Source of the DNA: a virus
Taxonomy: Duplodnaviria; Heunggongvirae; Uroviricota; Caudoviricetes
Length of the DNA stretch: 21,351 nucleotides
IMG/VR virus record: IMGVR_UViG_2861043448_000004
Span: 1-21,351 of that record
Strand: one strand, 5' to 3'
Part shown: positions 542 to 21,351 of the stretch, piece after piece
Layout of the letters: every line of letters begins with the position of its first letter
Numbering within the stretch: position 1 is the stretch's first letter
Notes under the pieces: model-generated
What the model was told of the DNA's origin: nothing
Seen by the model: only the letters and a program-made list of their open reading frames with translations
The model's database searches: none
Translations under genes and position numbers: made by a program

Positions 542-1579
542 TTAACGCTTATCCGCCACCAGTTTGAGCGCGTGTTCCAGCACATTAATGTCTGCACCCG
601 CTTTATGGGCATTTTCACTTAAATAACGCCGCCACTGCCGCGCGCCAGGAATACCCTGGAACAAGCCCAACATATGCCGGGTAATATGGCCGAGATACGT
701 CCCCTGGCTGAGTTCACGCTCAATGTACGGATACATGGCGCGCACTACCGCCACTGGATCGGCATCGGTATCCGAGGAACCAAAGATCTCCCGGTCTACC
801 GCCGCCAGAATACCCGGATTCTGATACGCCTCGCGCCCGACCATCACGCCATCCATATGTTGCAGGTGTGCTTTGGCCTCTTCCAGCGACTTGATACCAC
901 CGTTAATCGACATTGTCAGATGCGGAAAGTCACGCTTCAGTTGATACACACGCGGATAATCGAGCGGCGGGATTTCACGGTTTTCTTTCGGGCTTAACCC
1001 CGAAAGCCAGGCTTTACGTGCGTGGATGATAAACATCTCACACTCGCCTTTGCCGGAAACGGTGTTGATGAAATCGCAGAGAAATTCATAGCTGTCCTGG
1101 TCATCGATGCCAATACGCGTTTTCACCGTCACTGGAATCGACACCACATCGCGCATCGCTTTCACGCAGTCGGCAACCAGCTGCGCATTACCCATCAGAC
1201 ACGCACCAAACATGCCGTTCTGCACCCGGTCAGACGGGCAGCCGACATTCAGGTTGATCTCATCATATCCACGCGCTTCTGCCAGCTTCGCACACTGTGC
1301 CAGCGCCGCCGGATCGCTACCGCCGAGTTGCAACGCTACCGGATGTTCTTCTTCACTGTACGCCAGGTAATCACCTTTACCGTGAATAATCGCCCCTGTG
1401 GTCACCATTTCGGTATACAGCAACGTATTGCGGGAAAGCAGACGCAAGAAATAGCGGCAATGTCTGTCCGTCCAGTCGAGCATAGGAGCAATGCTAAACC
1501 GAGAACTCCAGTAAGCGCCAGTTTTTTCAGGCATCACGCTGGTTTGATTAGTTTTCTGTGTTTCAGGATTATCGTGCAT
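542..1579 (-). CDS. dusA: tRNA-dihydrouridine synthase A
   Basis: 345-aa translation is collinear with E. coli DusA over the whole length (TIM-barrel Dus motifs such as [14 protein letters not shown] and [23 protein letters not shown]). The first ~30 residues differ from my recollection of the K-12 sequence, as expected if the prophage supplies a replacement 5' end. Confidence 0.9.
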
Positions 1580-1667: not shown

Positions 1668-2765
1668 ATGGCGTACTATAACATAGAGAAACGACTAAAA
1701 TCCGATGGCACACCACGCTATCGCTGTAATGTGATTATCAAAGAAAAAGGTGTTATCACTTACAGGGAAAGCAAAACATTCCCTAAACATGCTCATGCCA
1801 AAACATGGGGCGCACAGAAAGTGATGGAATTAGATCTATATGGCATTCCATCATCAAATGCTGTTGACGGACTTACAGTCCGTGACTTACTACACAAATA
1901 TTTAAATGACCCAAATGCCGGAGGTAAAGCAGGCCGTACTAAAAGATATGTGCTGGAACTGCTTATGGATAGTGACATCTCCGCGATCAAACTATCTGAA
2001 CTGACAGAAAATGACGTAATTGAACATTGCAGGCTAAGAAACAACGCTGGTGCAGGCCCAGCAACAGTCAGCCACGATGTTAGTTATCTTGGCAGTGTTC
2101 TGGATGCGGCAAAACCTGTATACGGAATCAATTACACATCAAACCCGGCGAAAAGCGCTCGTCCATATCTACTTAAACTCGGTTTGATTGGTAAATCAAA
2201 CCGTCGTAATCGTAGACCAGCATCTGATGAACTGAACATGCTCATTGAAGGCCTTCAACAACGATCTACTCATAAATGCTCAAAAATTCCGTTCGTTGAT
2301 ATCCTCAAATTTTCTGTGTGGTCCTGTATGCGAATCGGAGAAGTATGCCGGTTACGATGGGAAGATCTCGACCAGGAACAAAAATCTATACTAGTAAGAG
2401 ACAGGAAAGATCCACGTAAAAAGGAAGGCAACCATATGAAAGTTGCCTTGCTTGGGGAAGCCTGGGATATCGTCCAGCGACAACCCAAAAAATCAGAATT
2501 CATTTTTCCATATAACAGCACTTCTGTTACCGCAGGATTTCAGAGGGTAAGAAGCAAATTAGGTATTAAAGATCTGAGATACCATGATTTGCGTAGAGAA
2601 GGGGCAAGTCGCTTATTTGAGGCTGGTTTTAGTATTGAGGAAGTCGCTCAGGTTACAGGGCATCGTTCATTAAACGTGCTATGGCAGGTATATACCGAAC
2701 TGTATCCGAAATCTTTACATAATCGTTTTGAAGAACTCCAAAGGAGCAGAAATAAGACCTCTTGA
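1668..2765 (+). CDS. int: Phage integrase, tyrosine recombinase (dusA-associated family)
   Basis: 365-aa ORF starting 88 bp upstream of and divergent from the dusA start; C-terminal catalytic region HDLRREGASRLFEAGFSIEEVAQVTGHRSLNVLWQVY carries the tyrosine recombinase H-x-x-R ... H ... Y signature; GAGG Shine-Dalgarno 7 nt upstream of the ATG. Confidence 0.9.
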   Translation: MAYYNIEKRLKSDGTPRYRCNVIIKEKGVITYRESKTFPKHAHAKTWGAQKVMELDLYGIPSSNAVDGLTVRDLLHKYLNDPNAGGKAGRTKRYVLELLMDSDISAIKLSELTENDVIEHCRLRNNAGAGPATVSHDVSYLGSVLDAAKPVYGINYTSNPAKSARPYLLKLGLIGKSNRRNRRPASDELNMLIEGLQQRSTHKCSKIPFVDILKFSVWSCMRIGEVCRLRWEDLDQEQKSILVRDRKDPRKKEGNHMKVALLGEAWDIVQRQPKKSEFIFPYNSTSVTAGFQRVRSKLGIKDLRYHDLRREGASRLFEAGFSIEEVAQVTGHRSLNVLWQVYTELYPKSLHNRFEELQRSRNKTS

Positions 2766-3296: not shown

Positions 3297-3848
3297 ATGC
3301 ATGACAATATTTGGTTTACATATAAAGCACGTATCCAAGCGCACCATCGACTAGAATGGCTTGAAAAACACTCTCAATTTATCCTCGTTTGGTATGCTAT
3401 ATTGAGTGCGGTACTTTCAATTGTAACGTTGCGATTTCCAAAGGTTCTAGGAGATAATACAGATGTCGTTGCGGCGATACTTTCAGTGGCTCTACTGGGT
3501 ATTTCTCTGATCGTATCTAACCTAGATTTTCGTGGTCGAGCAATAGCCATGAGAAGGAATTATATTGCACTACAGCGACTCTATTTTGACATTACCACCA
3601 GTCAACAGTTATCTCTTGAACAGAAAGAAAAATATTTTAATTTGCTCAATGAGGTTGAGAATCACCGTGACATAGATGATAAAATTTCAAGGGTAACTCA
3701 AGTTGGACTTAAGACGAGGATCCCCACACAAAAAGAAAAAATAATTGTTATTTTATGGATATTACTTCGAATATTTATTACTGCCGCACTTTATATACTC
3801 CCATTAATATATCTTTGGATTGACTATGACTGCAAGCAGAATTTTTAA
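3297..3848 (+). CDS. Predicted multi-pass inner-membrane protein, partner of the reverse transcriptase
   Basis: 183-aa ORF with AGGA Shine-Dalgarno 6 nt upstream; hydrophobic helices FILVWYAILSAVLSIVTL, VVAAILSVALLGISLIVSNL and C-terminal IIVILWILLRIFITAALYILPLIYLWI; AT-rich codon usage unlike flanking genes; 3' end overlaps the RT start by 23 nt. Confidence 0.7.
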   Translation: MHDNIWFTYKARIQAHHRLEWLEKHSQFILVWYAILSAVLSIVTLRFPKVLGDNTDVVAAILSVALLGISLIVSNLDFRGRAIAMRRNYIALQRLYFDITTSQQLSLEQKEKYFNLLNEVENHRDIDDKISRVTQVGLKTRIPTQKEKIIVILWILLRIFITAALYILPLIYLWIDYDCKQNF

Positions 3849-5196
3849 AAAGTCATTCTCGAAAAAAAATCTTCTAAAAGTATACTCTGAAAAAATCAAA
3901 GAATCAGGAGCGATTGGCATAGATCGGATTCGCCCATCAAAACTTGATTTGACAATAAAAAATGAGATCACTTTCATTTTTGAAAAGGTTAATTCTGGCA
4001 ATTACAAATTTACAGCATATAAAGAAAAATTAATATCTAAAGGCGCTAACTCTACACCCAGACAGATTTCCATACCAACTGCTAGGGACAGAATTACTCT
4101 TAGAGCTCTCTGTGAATGCCTTACGGAAATATATCCTAAGTCCAGATTAAAACTACCACATACAGTAATTGACTCATTGAAAGAAGCATTAAACAACAGT
4201 CTATATGCTGAATATGCAAAAATAGATCTTAAAAGTTTCTATCCTTCAATTGAACATAAATTGATAATTAATGCAATAAAAAATAAAATTAGAAAAAAAG
4301 AAATTAGACAGTTAATAACATCATCATTAATCGTGCCTACTGTAAGTGGAACCACAGGAAGCAAAGGTATCCCTAATAATACCAGAGGAGTACCTCAGGG
4401 ATTAGCGATATCAAACATTTTAGCTGAAATATCACTATCTAATTTCGATGATGAAATCAATAAAATGCATGACATATGGTACATGCGATACGTTGATGAC
4501 ATTCTTATTTTAACACCAAAATATCAAGCAACAAAAATAGCTTCTCATATCATTGATAAGCTTCAATCATTAAATTTAAACCCACATCCATTAAATGAAG
4601 AGAACTCAAAATCCAAAGTAGGCAGTTTGGATGAAAGTTTTAACTTTTTGGGATACCACATAGAAAATCGAGAATTATTGATAAAACATGAGAGCATTCT
4701 TAGATTTGAGTCATCCTTAGCAAAAATTTTTACTGCATATAGGCACGCTCTACTACAAGCTAAAAGTAAGCGTGATAAAGAACGAGCTGTTGCATATTGT
4801 CAGTGGAAACTAAATCTCAGAATTACGGGATGTGTGTTTGAAGGTAAACGATTGGGATGGGTATCGTACTTCTCACAAATAACCTCAACAGCTCAACTTC
4901 GCTCTGTTAATCATACTATCAATAATCTTATCCGCCGATTCGGCCTTTCATCAGAAATAAAACCAAAATCTTTGATTAAAACTTTCTATGAACTCCGCAG
5001 AGGTAGAGCGGAGACTTTTAAATACATACCTAACTTTGACAATCTACATATATCTCAGAAACGAGAACTTGTTTCTATGTGGATAGGTAAAGAGAAGGAA
5101 AAAAAACTTAGCAATAGTGAAATAGAGAGGAAGTTTAAATTTAAAATTGCGAAATCAGTAAAAGAGCTTGAAGAGGATATTTCAGGAATATCATAG
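3826..5196 (+). CDS. Reverse transcriptase (defence-associated, non-retron motif pattern)
   Basis: 456 aa from the ATG at 3826 (track ORF begins at a TTG at 3820). RT motifs are all present: GIDRI, RQISIPTARDRITLRAL, YAEYAKIDLKSFYPSI, GVPQGLAISNILAEISL, YMRYVDDILIL (YVDD catalytic box), FNFLGYHI (FLG-type motif 7 rather than the retron VTG); about 170-aa C-terminal extension; AT-rich. Confidence 0.85.
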   Translation: MTASRIFKKSFSKKNLLKVYSEKIKESGAIGIDRIRPSKLDLTIKNEITFIFEKVNSGNYKFTAYKEKLISKGANSTPRQISIPTARDRITLRALCECLTEIYPKSRLKLPHTVIDSLKEALNNSLYAEYAKIDLKSFYPSIEHKLIINAIKNKIRKKEIRQLITSSLIVPTVSGTTGSKGIPNNTRGVPQGLAISNILAEISLSNFDDEINKMHDIWYMRYVDDILILTPKYQATKIASHIIDKLQSLNLNPHPLNEENSKSKVGSLDESFNFLGYHIENRELLIKHESILRFESSLAKIFTAYRHALLQAKSKRDKERAVAYCQWKLNLRITGCVFEGKRLGWVSYFSQITSTAQLRSVNHTINNLIRRFGLSSEIKPKSLIKTFYELRRGRAETFKYIPNFDNLHISQKRELVSMWIGKEKEKKLSNSEIERKFKFKIAKSVKELEEDISGIS

Positions 5197-8477: not shown

Positions 8478-9890
8478 TCATTCAGTGTTTCCTGCCGGAT
8501 AGCTGGCCGGATCAATTCGCTGGCTCTCCCCGTCGCTGTCACCGCGCAATGACTGCGTGATGTTGTAACGATCAATAATCCAGCGTTCGCCACGGCTGCC
8601 ATAGCCCGTTACCTGAACCACAAAACGGCGATGACGTCCCGCCTGCACATCCACTGTCGCCACAAGGAAATTAACGCCATCCGGCACACTGCGGGAAGGA
8701 ACTGGCTCTGCCCGCTGCTCAAGCAATTCACTTTTTCGTTGCTCCATGCTGGCGCGGGGAAGATAAGGTAATCCCCAGTCGGTATTGATAACCGTCTTGA
8801 GTGTCTCTTCACTTCCGGTTGTCTCGTATTCCTGTTCTGCAGTAAGCAGTTTGTAAACGAGTTGCGAGAGTGTCTGATAAGCAGCTGCCGGCCCCTCCAT
8901 CCAGAATGACGCAATACGTGAACGCCGGGGATCACCATAACGACTGCCATCTGCATTGATGGATTCACCATCCCGTAACCAGACCCCACGTCCGTTCAGC
9001 TCGCGTTTTTGTTCAGGCAAAATCCGTCCTGAACAGGAAGGACACTGAATATAAGCCGCCTCACTTGCCAGCACAGGATCGGCAATATCACGGAAACCAG
9101 CAACCACATCGCCGCAGGGCTGAAAATACTCACCACAGTGTGGACAGGGCCAGTACCAGCGACGGCGATCGCCACGGTTATAGAGCGACAGGATCCCCGT
9201 GGTTGGTGGAGCCTCATGCGGTGAAGTCCGTCGCCATTTCACATCCTTCACATCCCTGCCGGGGGAACTCTCCACCAGCGTCATACCACTGGACATAAAT
9301 GTGGTGGTACGTTTTGAGGCAAGAGAGAAGGCATCCCCCTCACCATCAATATCTTCCGGAAAACGGTCATAATCCGTCAGCGCCACGCATTTATAATCTG
9401 ATGAAGACATGATATTGACTGACGGCCAGCCGATTTTCAGGTAGTTGCCAGCAAGGAATGTTCTGTCATAAACGTTGTTGTCATTTTTGTTCGGACTCAG
9501 GCGACTGACCACTTCCGGGCTGACGCGAAACGTTCTGGCGAGTCGTTTTTTGGAGTGTTCGCGGGCTTTTTCCTCCGTCATCTGAATGATCAGCATATCA
9601 GCAGGATCGCAAATCACGTTGTAAATCACCCAGCCGTCAATCAGGCCGATAGTCTTGCCGGTTCGTGCCGGGCCAACAAATATCACTGCGTCGTATTCAC
9701 GCGAGGCCAGGCAGTTCATAGGCTCAATAACATACGGTGCCACCAGCGGATCCCACGGGACTGAGTTCCCTGCCCCCATGGGCACCCGCATATACTGAGC
9801 AACGGCATCAGCAACCCGCATTCGTCTCGGTGCGCGAAGGATATAACCTGAATCGGTTCGTGCTGCCTTTGCGGTTTCCTGATTCAGCAT
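8478..9890 (-). pseudogene. Terminase large subunit (GpA family), C-terminally truncated
   Basis: 470 aa against about 640 in lambda gpA; contains GPARTGKT Walker-A-like motif, zinc-finger-like WPCPHCGEYFQ ... CPSCSG and WIIDRYNI resembling lambda gpA ACPHCGEE and SWLIDRQII; start overlaps the small-subunit stop (TAATG) with GGAGGAG Shine-Dalgarno; ORF ends abruptly at TGA directly abutting stf. Confidence 0.75.
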
Positions 9891-11059: not shown

Positions 11060-11299
11060 CTAACTGTCGAATTTGTTTCGTAACTCCGGCGACAGTGACG
11101 ACCACCAGTTTATCGCTTCAAGTGCTTCTTTCTCTATATAATTTTTTTTATAGAATGCTTGCAATTGAGGTAGCACATTATCATGTGAGAATGCCTCTGA
11201 AATTTTGAAGTCTGCACCTAAGTGCATCGCTCCCATTTTCAATACCTTGAGATACCCATGGATTTCAGCATGTTTTTCAAAATCATCTAATATATTCAT
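11060..11299 (-). CDS. Hypothetical small protein (79 aa) between lysis genes and cos
   Basis: Intact ORF MNILDDFEKHAEIHGYLKVL...; followed by a terminator; family not recognised. Confidence 0.45.
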   Translation of the reverse strand: MNILDDFEKHAEIHGYLKVLKMGAMHLGADFKISEAFSHDNVLPQLQAFYKKNYIEKEALEAINWWSSLSPELRNKFDS

Positions 11300-11326
11300 T
11301 TCTTCATCCTTTAGTGAGAGCGCTCA

Positions 11327-11354
11327 ACATACTACATACTACATACTACATAAT
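11327..11354. repeat. Tandem heptanucleotide repeat (ACATACT) x3 plus one imperfect unit
   Basis: ACATACT ACATACT ACATACT ACATAAT read directly; spans the Rz stop codon and the upstream region of the 79-aa gene. Confidence 0.85.
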
Positions 11355-11807
11355 GCACTGGGTGACGATATAGTTCTGCAGATAACTAATCTGTTTAGTC
11401 ACTGTGACGATTCGCTCTCTAAGGGTGAAATAATCCCGTTCAGCGGAGTCATTAAGTCGGGGGCTGGTAACATCGCCCAAGCTGCCGGTGCTGGTCGCTC
11501 CATTCGCGGGACATCTGGCGTTGAAGTGCAGCCCACACTTGCCAGTGCGAACACAACGCTGCAAATCATCAAGCTGCTTTTTAGCATCAGCTAAGTCCTT
11601 CGTGTATTTGGCATCCAGAGCCGCTACATCACGCTGGCGGATCTGCATGTCTTTGATGGTGGCGTTCGCCAGTTTCAGTTCTCTGGTGTTTTTGTCGCGC
11701 TGCTCTTTGTAAGTCATGGCGTTATCCCGGTAATGATTAACAGCCCATGACAGACAGACGATGATGCAGATAACCAGAGCGGAGATAATCGCGGTTAATC
11801 TGCTCAT
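11346..11807 (-). CDS. Rz: Spanin inner-membrane subunit Rz (i-spanin)
   Basis: [30 protein letters not shown]... is near-identical in its first ~70 residues to lambda Rz; ATG at 11807 overlaps the upstream stop (ATGA). Confidence 0.9.
11399..11587 (-). CDS. Rz1: Spanin outer-membrane lipoprotein Rz1 (o-spanin), embedded in the Rz +1 frame
   Basis: 62-aa ORF wholly inside Rz in another frame; lipobox LASVGC, proline-rich [12 protein letters not shown] and PLNGIISP motif shared with lambda Rz1. Confidence 0.8.
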
Positions 11808-12178
11808 TTCTGCCCCCACAAACAGACTTCACGCTCAATCTCCCGACGAGTCATCAGTCCTTTCCATTGCTTACCGCCAGCGTATGTCCAGCGACGTAGC
11901 TGATCACACGCACCTTTGATATCGTCCCGGTTGATTTTGCGAAGAAGCGTCGATGTTCTGAAATTTCCAGTATCCGGAGGAAACAACACGATCTCCACTG
12001 AAGCAGGTGCCGACGTTGGTTTCGGCAGACGACGTAACTGCTCAACTATTGCTGCGCACGCCGCGCTCTGAAATTTTCGCCCCGCCTCGCTTATCAGGCT
12101 CTTACCAGCAAATGCCCCTTTGTTGGGGTGTCGCCAGTACGTGTTCACACTGGGCGGGAAAGGAAGGATCAACTTCAT
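11804..12178 (-). pseudogene. Chimeric ORF: RusA resolvase N-terminus fused to endolysin C-terminus
   Basis: Residues 1 to about 68 (LPFPPSVNTYWRH...VEIVLFPPD) resemble RusA (LPWPPSNNRYYRH...) but stop before the catalytic acidic cluster; the remainder [54 protein letters not shown] matches the C-terminus of a DLP12 RrrD-type lysozyme (from memory). Confidence 0.6.
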
Positions 12179-14693: not shown

Positions 14694-15522
14694 GACGATG
14701 CCCTCCGCTGATATTCAGGAGACGGTGAATATGAAAATTAGCCTTATCCGCCAGACGAATACGTTCAGCCTGCAAGTTAAGAAGGGTTTCTACCAGAACT
14801 TGATGCGCCTGCGGATCCGAAAGAGTTACCTTGCGCAGAGCACGTAGTGCAGTTGTTACATAACTGAGTTTATGTAAGTCTTCATCATTCAGACGAGTGA
14901 GGGCTGGGACAGTAGCCATGATGGCAGCCTCCGATAACAGTGAATTACCTTCACCACCGGAAACGCCAATTTCGCTGGTGGTGAACTGAACGGGGTTGGC
15001 GTAACCGGCGTTATCGGAAACCGGCGCACCTTTCGGTGCCCCCGTCCAGCCCACCATAATTTGGGTGTGCACAGACGCAGACGATAAAAAAGACGCTGGC
15101 GCGTCATATATCGCCGATAACATTTCCAGGACGCCAATCCCGGCACCCGCTTTATAAGGTGCCTGAACAGTGTAACGTCCCGGAATGGCAGAATCAATGT
15201 GCTGGTGGTCCTTCACACTCAACAAAATCACGCCTGAATTTCCACAAAGGACTAAAGCACTCATGCGGGTAGTCTTTGCGAAGATAGATAACGCGCTGTG
15301 TTTCTGGCTCCCAACGAATAACATGGACATAAAGCCCTCTTCCGTCACGAAACCAGCGGTTAAGTTCCTGCACAACTCGCCCCCCACAGTCAGGTAAAGT
15401 TCTCTGTGGTTACTTACAGCCAGGTGATTTGGTAATCTGCATTCATGCCGTAACAACAGGTGTTCAGCGACACTGACCACCAGCTGTTGCGACAAACGGT
15501 TATTTGCCGTTAAACTGTTCAT
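14686..15522 (-). CDS. Hypothetical phage protein (278 aa), possibly YdaU-like
   Basis: Long intact ORF, translationally coupled to the upstream gene; family assignment tentative and from memory only. Confidence 0.5.
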   Translation of the reverse strand: MNSLTANNRLSQQLVVSVAEHLLLRHECRLPNHLAVSNHRELYLTVGGELCRNLTAGFVTEEGFMSMLFVGSQKHSALSIFAKTTRMSALVLCGNSGVILLSVKDHQHIDSAIPGRYTVQAPYKAGAGIGVLEMLSAIYDAPASFLSSASVHTQIMVGWTGAPKGAPVSDNAGYANPVQFTTSEIGVSGGEGNSLLSEAAIMATVPALTRLNDEDLHKLSYVTTALRALRKVTLSDPQAHQVLVETLLNLQAERIRLADKANFHIHRLLNISGGHRHA

Positions 15523-18998: not shown

Positions 18999-19172
18999 TT
19001 TCATTACTGCAAATGCCCCTGCGGGGGCGTTTACGGAAGCGATAATTTTAACTATTGCCGCCCCTATAAAGAACCATTAAACAATAACGTGACGAAGCTA
19101 TTGATAGTAAATGAAGCACTTGCAAAATAATTGCATTGCGTATATATACACATGTGTTGTATTACAGCGATA

Positions 19173-19967
19173 ATGGTAAAGCAAATGATTAACTCTGAAG
19201 CAATTGAGCAACTAATGTGGCTATGGTCCTTATTTGACATTAAATTCTTATCTATTCTTGCCGCTGCCTTCACTATATATTTTGGCGTGCAAAAAATATC
19301 AAAAAAGGTGACAGTGTCGTATTCAGCAAATGCAAGTAGAATATATGACATGCATATATCAACCATAATCCTGAATAATAAAAGAGATAATGCAATTGCT
19401 ATATCTTCAATCAATATGGAGGTTGAAGGTAAAGGGATACTACAAGTTATTAAATTTGACTCCCCTCTTCTTTTAAAGAACTATGATTCTTTAAAAGTTG
19501 AACCACCAAAATTTAGCAGCCTTTATAATAATGATGGCGTAGTTAAGTTAGATATTTATGATAAGTTTCATTTTTATATAATCACGACATCTGGAGATGA
19601 AATTAAATGTATTTCTGAAAATAAATATGTGGCACCAAACATGGAAAACAAAATAGCTACAGACATAAGAAAATTTAATGGCATTGTCTTAACAAACAGA
19701 ATGTCTTATATTTTTTTCTATGCAAATGACAACAGAGAGAAATACTGCATAATAGATGTTTCATTGTTCATAAATGGTGACAACCCATTTCATTTTAATT
19801 TTTTAAAAGAAGATGAATTAAGAGATTTTTCTAGCATCCTTATTAGTTACGGATATCACCAACAGTTTAAAAGTTATGCATTGTTTAAAATAGACAACCA
19901 TCTTGCTCCTTCTTTGGTTTTAAATAAATCAATGATAGAAAATAATATTATTGAAATGAATAAGTAA
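19173..19967 (+). CDS. AT-rich membrane-anchored protein of unknown function (cargo gene)
   Basis: Start uncertain (ATG at 19173 or 19185; track ORF begins at a TTG at 19131); one N-terminal hydrophobic helix LMWLWSLFDIKFLSILAAAFTIYFG then about 230 soluble residues rich in N/K/I/F/Y; strongly AT-biased codons relative to neighbours. Confidence 0.55.
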   Translation: MVKQMINSEAIEQLMWLWSLFDIKFLSILAAAFTIYFGVQKISKKVTVSYSANASRIYDMHISTIILNNKRDNAIAISSINMEVEGKGILQVIKFDSPLLLKNYDSLKVEPPKFSSLYNNDGVVKLDIYDKFHFYIITTSGDEIKCISENKYVAPNMENKIATDIRKFNGIVLTNRMSYIFFYANDNREKYCIIDVSLFINGDNPFHFNFLKEDELRDFSSILISYGYHQQFKSYALFKIDNHLAPSLVLNKSMIENNIIEMNK

Positions 19968-20003
19968 CTCACCGGGTGCAGCCGGTTATGATGGAGAAAT
20001 GAT

Positions 20004-20273
20004 ATGAATACCTTGTTTTTACTGATGGCTGAATTCAATACCCCAAACATTGAACTCTCAGCAGTTAGTCAAAAATACTTTGGTATGAGTCCAGCCACAG
20101 CAGAAGCAAAAGCAAACGCTTGTAAGTTGCCTGTACCTACATATCGCATCGGTACATCACAAAAAGCAAAACGCTGCATCAACATTCAGGATCTTGCGGA
20201 ATATATTGACAAAAGACGGGAAGAAGGGCGAGCTGAGTGGGAAAAAGTCAGAACGGAAAAAAAATATAACTAA
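20004..20273 (+). CDS. PrtN-family (pyocin activator-like) DNA-binding protein
   Basis: 89 aa; N-terminus MNTLFLLMAEFNTPNIELSAVSQKYFGMS and LPVPTYRIG ... DLAEYIDKRREE match the PrtN family pattern as I recall it. Confidence 0.55.
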   Translation: MNTLFLLMAEFNTPNIELSAVSQKYFGMSPATAEAKANACKLPVPTYRIGTSQKAKRCINIQDLAEYIDKRREEGRAEWEKVRTEKKYN

Positions 20274-20287
20274 ACTAAAACTATGGA

Positions 20288-20315
20288 TAACCCGTATATG
20301 TACGGGTTATTTTTC
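20288..20315 (+). terminator. Candidate intrinsic terminator between convergent genes
   Basis: AACCCGTAtatgTACGGGTT hairpin followed by ATTTTTC; overlaps the stop codon of the minus-strand gene. Confidence 0.45.
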
Positions 20316-20855
20316 TTTATCACTATCTTTTCTTGATTTGAACAATCCACTAACAACGAAACCAACCAAACCAACAATACTAATTGTACTTGTACCTAGT
20401 AATGCAACGATCGCTTCAACTGGAGCCTTTCCTTCATGTGCAATAAGAAACGATGTAAACATTGCGACAACGAATAAGCACCAACACGACATAAACCAAA
20501 CCGTGAATGATGCCATTTTTGTCCGGAGCTCATTGTCTATTTCTTTACCAGTTGCGTCAGCTATCTTATCCCGTACTTGTGATTTGAGCATATCAAGCTG
20601 AGCTTGAAGACTGTCCATTCTGTTCTGCTGCATAAACTCATGCAATGCACCAGTATTAGAACCAAACTCTTCTTCCTCCAGAATAGCCTTATTTTCTGAA
20701 GAAGAATCATCATCGCGTTCATGATTAGACGGCTCAAATGCGGATTCAAAAGCCTGCTCTTGACTGTCAGTAGAGTTTAAGGATGCTTCAGAGCGACCAT
20801 TTTCAACACCTGCGGCCGCTCCGATCAGTTTATAGATATCTGAATTATGAGACAT
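20307..20855 (-). CDS. Small membrane protein with acidic N-terminal region; candidate toxin partner of the Panacea protein
   Basis: 182 aa; N-terminal half acidic and polar with predicted coiled coil (LQAQLDMLKSQVRDKIADATGKEIDNELRTKM); C-terminal two hydrophobic helices (FTVWFMSCWCLFVVAMFTSFLIA and AIVALLGTSTISIVGLVGFVVSGLF); starts 22 bp downstream of the Panacea gene on the same strand. Confidence 0.55.
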   Translation of the reverse strand: MSHNSDIYKLIGAAAGVENGRSEASLNSTDSQEQAFESAFEPSNHERDDDSSSENKAILEEEEFGSNTGALHEFMQQNRMDSLQAQLDMLKSQVRDKIADATGKEIDNELRTKMASFTVWFMSCWCLFVVAMFTSFLIAHEGKAPVEAIVALLGTSTISIVGLVGFVVSGLFKSRKDSDKEK

Positions 20856-20877
20856 GTCATCCCTGAATATTACTTTT

Positions 20878-21351
20878 TCAGAGGCCCTGACATTGCTGTC
20901 GGTTATTCAATAAATCATGATAATAAGCCTTGATCGCATCATTTGAGATGATCGACGAGCCAATACCATTATAAGCTTGTGACCAAGGCGTACCTGGCAT
21001 ATGAGTTAGAGTTGATAACTCAATTCCATTTTTCGAGCCGTAAAACTTATAAACAGCCCCGATAATGCTCTCTGCTTGCGGATCCATAGTAACGATGCCA
21101 CCAAAAGGAGCTACTGCTACATTCGTAACAGGTTTATTCCCATAGTCTTTGAAAGCATCGTACATTCCAGGAATAACTGGACCGTACTTCCACGCGGAGA
21201 CACATTCATTGAGCAAAGGCTTACCTGTTAATGCTAAATAGTAACCATGGGCAATATAAGTAAGCTTCTGCAGTTGCATGTGGGTCAGAGGATTATGATG
21301 TTGGTTTCCCAACGTTATGAATTTATTGGCTATTTGTACCGGACTGTACAT
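20878..21351 (-). CDS. Panacea-domain (DUF4065, SocA-like) protein; candidate antitoxin
   Basis: 157 aa; MQLQKLTYIAHGYYLALTGKPLLNECVSAWKYGPVIPGMYDAFKDYG matches the Panacea core pattern (KLQKLLYyaqG ... pLf ... AW.yGPV ... Y). Start codon is the last three bases of the window, so the upstream region is unseen. Confidence 0.65.
   Translation of the reverse strand: MYSPVQIANKFITLGNQHHNPLTHMQLQKLTYIAHGYYLALTGKPLLNECVSAWKYGPVIPGMYDAFKDYGNKPVTNVAVAPFGGIVTMDPQAESIIGAVYKFYGSKNGIELSTLTHMPGTPWSQAYNGIGSSIISNDAIKAYYHDLLNNRQQCQGL

Follow-up and report, generated by a model that had tools for sequence, protein, structure and literature searches.

The last two genes of the window, a 21,351-nucleotide stretch of viral DNA (Caudoviricetes; IMG/VR record IMGVR_UViG_2861043448_000004), very probably constitute the Escherichia coli PanAT type II toxin-antitoxin module, carried as a moron by lambdoid prophages integrated in dusA and composed of a pore-forming toxin, PanT, that is blocked by the antitoxin PanA. 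Because the antitoxin is identical and the toxin nearly identical to those of a published pair, this is an already characterised system, the E. coli PanA-PanT pair studied experimentally in 2022, and its recognition here is a correct call rather than a discovery. The combination of a Panacea antitoxin with a membrane-acting toxin in a toxin-antitoxin pair, put forward in the initial annotation of this DNA, has thus been published for an identical PanA and for a toxin that differs at 6 of 182 positions (PMC8832971). The further suggestion that the partner might be a new Panacea-associated toxin has to be abandoned, as this protein falls into T3, a PanT cluster already published.

The antitoxin gene, panA, is found on the minus strand at positions 20878..21351 and codes for a protein of 157 residues, its ATG starting at the final base of the window. 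The toxin gene, panT (20307..20855, minus strand), codes for a 182-residue protein. Both genes were taken from the ORF list, and reading of the sequence places between them a 22-nt spacer on the minus strand (20856..20877; AAAAGTAATATTCAGGGATGAC), which verifies the coordinates and the distance initially given for the same-strand partner. The location of both genes on one strand with close spacing is the two-gene arrangement of PanATs. The 22-nt gap and the antitoxin-toxin (A|T) order are constant in all 19 related loci inspected, namely 18 E. coli genome loci and the locus of phage PhiR47_1. E. coli APEC O78 and many other E. coli chromosomes carry a 100%-identical copy of positions 19900-21351 of the window, and on this DNA RefSeq annotates panA as WP_000287252.1, a Panacea domain-containing protein, and panT as WP_000019186.1, a hypothetical protein.

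The experimental evidence comes from Kurata et al. 2022 (PNAS 119:e2102212119, PMC8832971), whose Table 1 lists PanA-PanT of E. coli STEC O31 with the mode 'Membrane'. The antitoxin tested in that study, WP_000287252.1, has the same accession as that of the window, and the toxin tested was WP_000019185.1. The corresponding row of the dataset places the toxin in cluster T3 and records the order A|T, a gap of 22 and the outcome 'TA'. The STEC O31 pair and that of the window therefore have in common the antitoxin accession, the toxin length and architecture, the gene order and the 22-nt gap. They differ by six toxin substitutions and by their reported settings, the published locus being labelled 'NotPhage' whereas that of the window clearly forms the end of a prophage in dusA. 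A full-text literature search for WP_000019186 retrieved nothing.

In E. coli BW25113, the E. coli PanT was toxic and caused growth arrest, and it was neutralised by its cognate PanA (PMC8832971). A 10x10 cross test showed PanAs to be strictly cognate-specific (PMC8832971). Induction of the E. coli PanT inhibited translation, transcription and replication together, as did HokB and CCCP, and microscopy revealed the loss of the DiSC3(5) signal and the gain of SYTOX Green, which the authors ascribed to large-pore depolarisation (PMC8832971). The checks proposed along with the initial annotation, i.e., toxicity of the partner alone, rescue by PanA and membrane depolarisation, were thus positive in Kurata 2022 (PMC8832971), on a toxin with 6 of 182 residues different. 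That study also found PanA neutralisation to be independent of ClpXP and Lon, the pairs assayed not being named in the text, and reported the pull-down of stable complexes for five PanAT pairs, a set to which the E. coli pair does not belong (PMC8832971).

Profile searches bore out the assignment of the upstream gene to the Panacea (DUF4065) family. PanA matches Pfam PF13274 (SocA_Panacea) with 66.3 bits for a gathering cut-off of 25.7 (E=5.9e-18), over residues 27-123 of the protein and positions 1-112 of the 113 of the profile, and it is part of phrog_1281 in PHROGs (E=6.6e-49). [quoted passage not shown] The codons of the GPV signature, G57-P58-V59 (context WKYGPVIPG), were read in the sequence at 21175..21183 on the minus strand, with Y56 just before them. 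The GPV motif was shown to be important for neutralisation in the PanA of V. harveyi. In the stand-alone PanA of Bartonella, the Y56A substitution abolishes neutralisation (Ernits et al. 2023, PMC10440598). The PanA of the window also has a Tyr residue at position 56, putatively equivalent, by residue number, to the Bartonella Y56.

The Panacea domain is common to PanA and to SocA, the antitoxin of the type VI SocAB system of Caulobacter crescentus. SocA is a ClpXP adaptor, and by the same token PanA could be a proteolytic adaptor that delivers its toxin to ClpXP. The NCBIfam SocA_antitoxin model (NF047745) does detect PanA (E=1e-27), but the score of 97 bits is below the curated cut-off of 190, and PanA is therefore no SocA equivalog. 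In addition, its partner is a membrane protein with two transmembrane (TM) segments and not SocB, which is no membrane protein, and PanA neutralisation works in strains devoid of ClpXP and Lon (PMC8832971). We consider a SocA-like mode of action highly improbable.

The HMM search that had been suggested for both proteins was thus productive for PanA, whereas PanT could be assigned to phrog_13343 only. It is a full-length member of the latter (E=2.9e-111), and all its matches in PHROGs are labelled 'unknown function'. Its Pfam hits amount to sub-threshold noise (7tm_6, 13.4 bits; DUF2975, 13.5 bits), and no NCBIfam or PADLOC family was found above threshold. With the PADLOC-DB v2 models, no family was identified for PanA or PanT at E<=0.01.

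Residues 1-112 of PanT have a net charge of -14 and a pI of 4.4, as determined by charge count. Of these, residues 1-60 (20676..20855, minus strand; net charge of -9) are predicted to be mostly unstructured, with two short, low-confidence helices and otherwise mostly no secondary structure in the AlphaFold2 (AF2) model (pLDDT 44-53). Residues 61-112 (20520..20675, minus strand) are predicted to form an amphipathic helix ahead of the membrane segments. Two hydrophobic stretches on the minus strand follow, the predicted TM helix 1 at residues 113-139 (20439..20519; Kyte-Doolittle peak of 2.15, helical in AF2) and the predicted TM helix 2 at residues 149-172 (20340..20411; Kyte-Doolittle peak of 2.22), and the protein ends with a basic tail, KSRKDSDKEK (residues 173-182). 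In the AF2 single-sequence model, a long helix (residues 61-139, pLDDT 57-82) runs into the first membrane segment, and a short loop connects it to a second helix (residues 146-180). The model is only moderately confident (mean pLDDT of 65, with 70-82 in helices), and for a protein of two or three long helices fold matches are meaningless. The acidic N-terminus and the two C-terminal TM helices described in the initial annotation are borne out by the charge, the hydropathy profile and the model, but the coiled coil is not, as residues ~61-112 are predicted to form an amphipathic helix only and residues 1-60 seem to be disordered. An acidic region, here at residues 1-112, followed by two hydrophobic helices is the architecture of T3 toxins, and PanT also belongs to T3 by sequence, since it shares a 90% cluster (P0004) with the tested WP_000019185.1.

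A similar organisation is found in the PanAT pair of Bartonella apis/choladocola (cluster T12, node D11), which likewise combines a stand-alone Panacea domain with a toxin harbouring a charged N-terminus and C-terminal TM helices. There as well, the toxin causes depolarisation and SYTOX permeability, and neutralisation occurs via the Panacea domain itself. The Bartonella PanT forms a separate cluster, described by the authors as 'potentially homologous' to T3. In that pair, the Panacea domain was predicted to contact the N-terminal region of the toxin and a short helix that precedes the TM segments, and the contact was confirmed by mutagenesis, with the interface mutants Y56A and H120E (Ernits et al. 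2023, PMC10440598). Because the Bartonella Panacea domain contacts these elements, residues ~61-112 of the E. coli PanT are likely, by analogy, to represent the PanA-binding region.

We propose the following mechanism for the E. coli module. The two genes would be co-transcribed, probably from a sigma-70 promoter located ~170 nt upstream of panA. PanT would enter the inner membrane via its two C-terminal helices and make large pores, through which the membrane potential would collapse and SYTOX Green would enter, and this collapse would bring translation, transcription and replication to a stop together. As a stand-alone Panacea domain, PanA would block PanT, most likely by binding the conserved pre-membrane helix and the acidic region, and its binding would keep the toxin from inserting into the membrane or oligomerising. 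We infer direct PanA-PanT binding in the E. coli pair, together with the binding site, from the analogous systems, and the toxicity of the exact window allele, WP_000019186.1, from its sequence. The same end effect, inner-membrane depolarisation with global metabolic shutdown, is produced by HokB and by the RosmerTA toxin of Gordonia phage Kita, and the labelling profile of HokB was comparable to that of PanT in the PanAT paper (PMC8832971). Hok-type toxins are under antisense RNA control (type I), with no protein antitoxin, and have no sequence relation to PanT. They are also far smaller proteins, of ~50 residues.

The tested toxin allele, WP_000019185.1, was traced via the RefSeq annotation at the 18 E. 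coli loci and found in STEC1588, whose PanA is identical to that of the window. The window PanT is identical to this allele at 176 of 182 positions (96.7%). The six substitutions, from the window to the tested allele, are E61A, V130A, A131G, T134V, A144P and S178G. A144 is in the inter-helix loop of the window PanT, and a Pro residue occupies this position in every other allele compared. With 939 contigs, as compared with 366 for the tested WP_000019185.1, the window allele WP_000019186.1 is the commonest one in the protein collection.

For selection analyses, nine other loci were compared with that of the window. PanA is identical at the amino-acid level in seven of them despite up to 10 synonymous changes, and PanT shows between 1 and 15 substitutions across the nine. 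The pN/pS (dN/dS) values, ~0.07 for panA and 0.18 for panT, indicate purifying selection on both. The dN/dS of 0.18 led us to reject the alternative that PanT, a variable toxin facing an invariant antitoxin, is under positive or diversifying selection. Within the toxin, residues 65-112 are the most constrained (pN/pS of 0.05) and residues 1-64 the most variable (pN/pS of 0.26), and the constraint on the former segment is compatible with an interaction surface. Among 5,426 complete E. coli genomes, 78 (1.4%) have panAT, always as one chromosomal copy. In view of the dN/dS values and of the intact, single chromosomal copy in each of the 78 genomes, panA and panT are genuine genes and not chance ORFs.

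The window corresponds to a defective lambdoid prophage of ~20 kb integrated in dusA. It starts with pspG, dusA and genes for an integrase, a DinI-like protein, SLATT and a reverse transcriptase, and continues with tail, portal, terminase and lysis remnants, a replication/immunity region and the gene of a cI-like repressor. At its end come yfdP, yfdQ, an AT-rich ORF of unknown function and the gene of a PrtN-type excisionase, followed by the convergent panT-panA pair. The cI-like repressor gene, yfdP, yfdQ, the AT-rich ORF and the excisionase gene are on the plus strand and point at panAT, and an orphan 105-nt 5' fragment of dusA just outside the window marks attR, directly beside the pair. 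The location at the accessory end of the prophage, convergent with the pL operon, had therefore been correctly perceived, as the plus-strand genes run toward the pair and attR comes next. In the circular phage, panAT is located between xis and attP/int. As an accessory gene pair, or moron, panAT occupies the attachment-site end of lambdoid prophages that integrate in dusA.

The pair is also present in three deposited phages, two of which have an Stx/STEC name or host, namely phiSTEC1575-Stx2k, a named Stx2k phage, and 1720a-02, from an O174:H21 STEC isolate. The dataset of Kurata 2022 (PMC8832971) flags the locus as 'NotPhage', and this flag is incorrect for the loci examined here. In Escherichia phage PhiR47_1 (PV340566.1, host ECOR13), a deposited complete phage genome of 43 kb as opposed to the defective prophage of the window, the DNA of the pair is 97.7% identical to that of the window, with an identical PanA and 5 differences in PanT. 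There, the pair is likewise beside the phage attachment site, and its GenBank record (2025) carries the annotations 'PanA antitoxin' and 'PanT toxin'; PanAT is not discussed in the paper that used this phage. The early-left genes of PhiR47_1 encode an HD hydrolase, EaE, Ea22 and exonuclease VIII, whereas the window has the AT-rich ORF instead.

As a small pore-former of a temperate phage with two TM helices, whose pores admit SYTOX Green (PMC8832971), PanT could be viewed as a holin-like lysis or exclusion protein and PanA as an antiholin-type regulator, with a role in the timing of phage lysis. However, panAT is outside the lysis cassette, which is found near 11060-11819 in the window, and it opposes the early left operon and probably has its own promoter. 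No holin family of Pfam or PHROGs was matched, and pairs of PanA with homologous T3 toxins are found in several phyla, in many settings other than phages (PMC8832971), the taxonomic breadth of the cluster being drawn from the dataset of Kurata et al. 2022. A function in lysis appears very unlikely, and we retain that of a toxin-antitoxin module.

Just beyond the window, ~170 nt before panA, the phage DNA carries a consensus sigma-70 promoter sequence, TTGACA-16-TATAAT (12/12 positions), that does not vary among four loci and that we consider the probable panAT promoter. ACAGTG/CACTGT repeats flank this element. It is followed by a ribosome-binding site, GAGGAGGG, ahead of panA. In the spacer between the two genes, a purine-rich AGGGA found 5 nt before the ATG of panT is read as a Shine-Dalgarno-like element. 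The orphan 5' fragment of dusA is upstream of panA on the same strand. The host dusA promoter as the sole driver of panAT was set aside, the 12/12 promoter being situated between the dusA fragment and panA. At the other end of the pair, a terminator scan of both strands on identical DNA (L002) detected a 12-bp hairpin (20285..20312) that separates the excisionase gene from panT and overlaps the stop codon of the latter. RNA folding gave it a stability of -14.3 kcal/mol (z=-4.1), which 0 of 200 shuffled sequences attained. Because a run of T residues comes next on the plus strand, this hairpin is predicted to be the terminator of the plus-strand xis (putative pL) transcript, and it is possibly bidirectional.

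Regarding the biological role of the module, we tentatively consider that it may mediate abortive-infection defence of the lysogen. Another phage would be sensed, possibly by the Panacea domain, and PanT would be freed and kill the cell by depolarisation before the invader replicates. Along these lines, Ernits et al. 2023 (PMC10440598) propose that Panacea is a sensor of activating cues, and the phage-borne, membrane-depolarising RosmerTA of Gordonia phage Kita has antiphage activity (PMC10440598). The position of panAT as a prophage moron beside the att site, and the presence at the other end of the prophage of RT_UG17 and SLATT, a second candidate defence pair, are in agreement with such a role. 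Conversely, the searchable literature gave no phage-challenge data for the E. coli PanAT pair, neither protein matched a PADLOC model, and the Kurata dataset treats the locus as 'NotPhage' (PMC8832971).

Prophage addiction appears rather unlikely. Loss of the element would deprive the cell of a labile antitoxin, and cells would be killed or arrested. The persistence of the pair at the edge of decaying prophages would then be explained. In the window and in the 100%-identical genomes, the portal, tail, lysozyme and RusA genes are truncated and a further 2.2 kb are deleted, while panAT is intact, and it directly adjoins attR. A possible addiction role was raised by Kurata et al. 2022 (PMC8832971) for PanATs near mobile elements. 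However, lability of PanA relative to PanT is an assumption, independence from Lon and ClpXP says nothing on turnover, and the pair is found in a very small proportion of the complete E. coli genomes.

The position of panAT might itself be functional, although we regard this putative scenario as doubtful. Antiterminated leftward transcription would pass the hairpin and disturb panAT, thereby releasing PanT, and the pair would act as an abortive or exclusion switch coupled to induction or infection, or would kill the cells that lose the prophage. If so, phage induction or infection by a related phage would be the trigger of PanT release.

Relative to the published characterisation of the pair, the contextual data on selection, distribution, prophage setting and expression signals are incremental. 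They show that the validated E. coli PanAT is phage-borne, as it occupies the attachment-site end of prophages integrated in dusA and of phages with an Stx/STEC name or host. Its own predicted strong promoter and its intactness in decayed prophages point to a role in prophage retention or in superinfection defence.

The E. coli PanAT pair was scored as 'NotPhage' in the GCF_000281775.1 row of Dataset S1 of Kurata et al. 2022. In contrast with this published flag, panAT lies inside a dusA prophage at every locus that we examined, and three deposited phage genomes carry the pair as well.

At the left end of the window, an intact dusA gene (542-1579, minus strand) adjoins a tyrosine integrase gene in divergent orientation (1668-2765, plus strand), and a second piece of dusA, an orphan 5' fragment of 105 nt, is located past the right window end. 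We take this layout of dusA, integrase and orphan fragment to be that expected for an element with a dusA-specific integrase, which supplies a replacement dusA 5' end. The prophage is defective, because 2,245 nt present in E. coli strain 035152 are absent from the window and because its portal, tail-L, lysozyme and RusA genes are truncated. Comparison with the same strain places the deletion junction at 8492-8501, where the two sides overlap by 10 nt, and the missing segment comprises part of the portal pseudogene and the terminase large-subunit gene.

The region directly upstream of window base 21351 was analysed in L002, an E. coli locus whose identical DNA runs past the window end. This panAT upstream region (L002 7453-7760, minus strand) is phage DNA corresponding to the attP arm. 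It harbours, just past the window end, a predicted panAT promoter (TTGACA-16-TATAAT, 12/12) and a predicted ribosome-binding site, GAGGAGGG. It also contains several ACAGTG/CACTGT inverted repeats, which could serve either as arm sites for the integrase or as an operator. The orphan dusA fragment, together with its own upstream region, is oriented toward panA, in the same direction.

Across the related panAT loci compared (L001-L019), the PanA antitoxin (WP_000287252.1; 20878-21351 in the window) is identical at the amino acid level in most cases, even at approximately 2% DNA difference. There are at least nine alleles of the PanT toxin (20307-20855 in the window) in this set, with variation concentrated in residues 1-64 and the first transmembrane helix, and residues 65-112 nearly invariant.

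Two neighbouring Rfam matches with scores above the gathering thresholds were obtained within the prophage region with the 'ash family' ORF, one to C4 antisense RNA (14974-15061, minus strand; 82.8 bits) and the other to the Hfq-binding sRNA isrK (15086-15162, minus strand; 63.7 bits).

The ORF at 19131-19967 (plus strand) codes for a protein of 260-278 residues of unknown function that corresponds to phrog_14996, and Pfam and PADLOC searches of its product yielded no match. Its GC content is very low, 28-32% as compared with 40-55% in its surroundings. In the Escherichia phage PhiR47_1, which has a related panAT pair, the same slot is occupied instead by HD-hydrolase, EaE, Ea22 and exonuclease VIII genes. 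This ORF is probably another horizontally acquired moron.

Finally, the integrase end of the prophage harbours two overlapping genes on the plus strand, coding for a SLATT-domain protein with two transmembrane helices (3297-3848; PADLOC RTasSLATT, E=1.5e-56; NCBIfam SLATT_5) and a reverse transcriptase of class UG17 (3820-5196; PADLOC RT_UG17, E=1.2e-158). Based on these profile matches, they represent a candidate DRT-type anti-phage pair. With this putative pair at the integrase end and panAT at the other, the prophage would thus carry a module with a two-transmembrane-helix effector at each of its ends.
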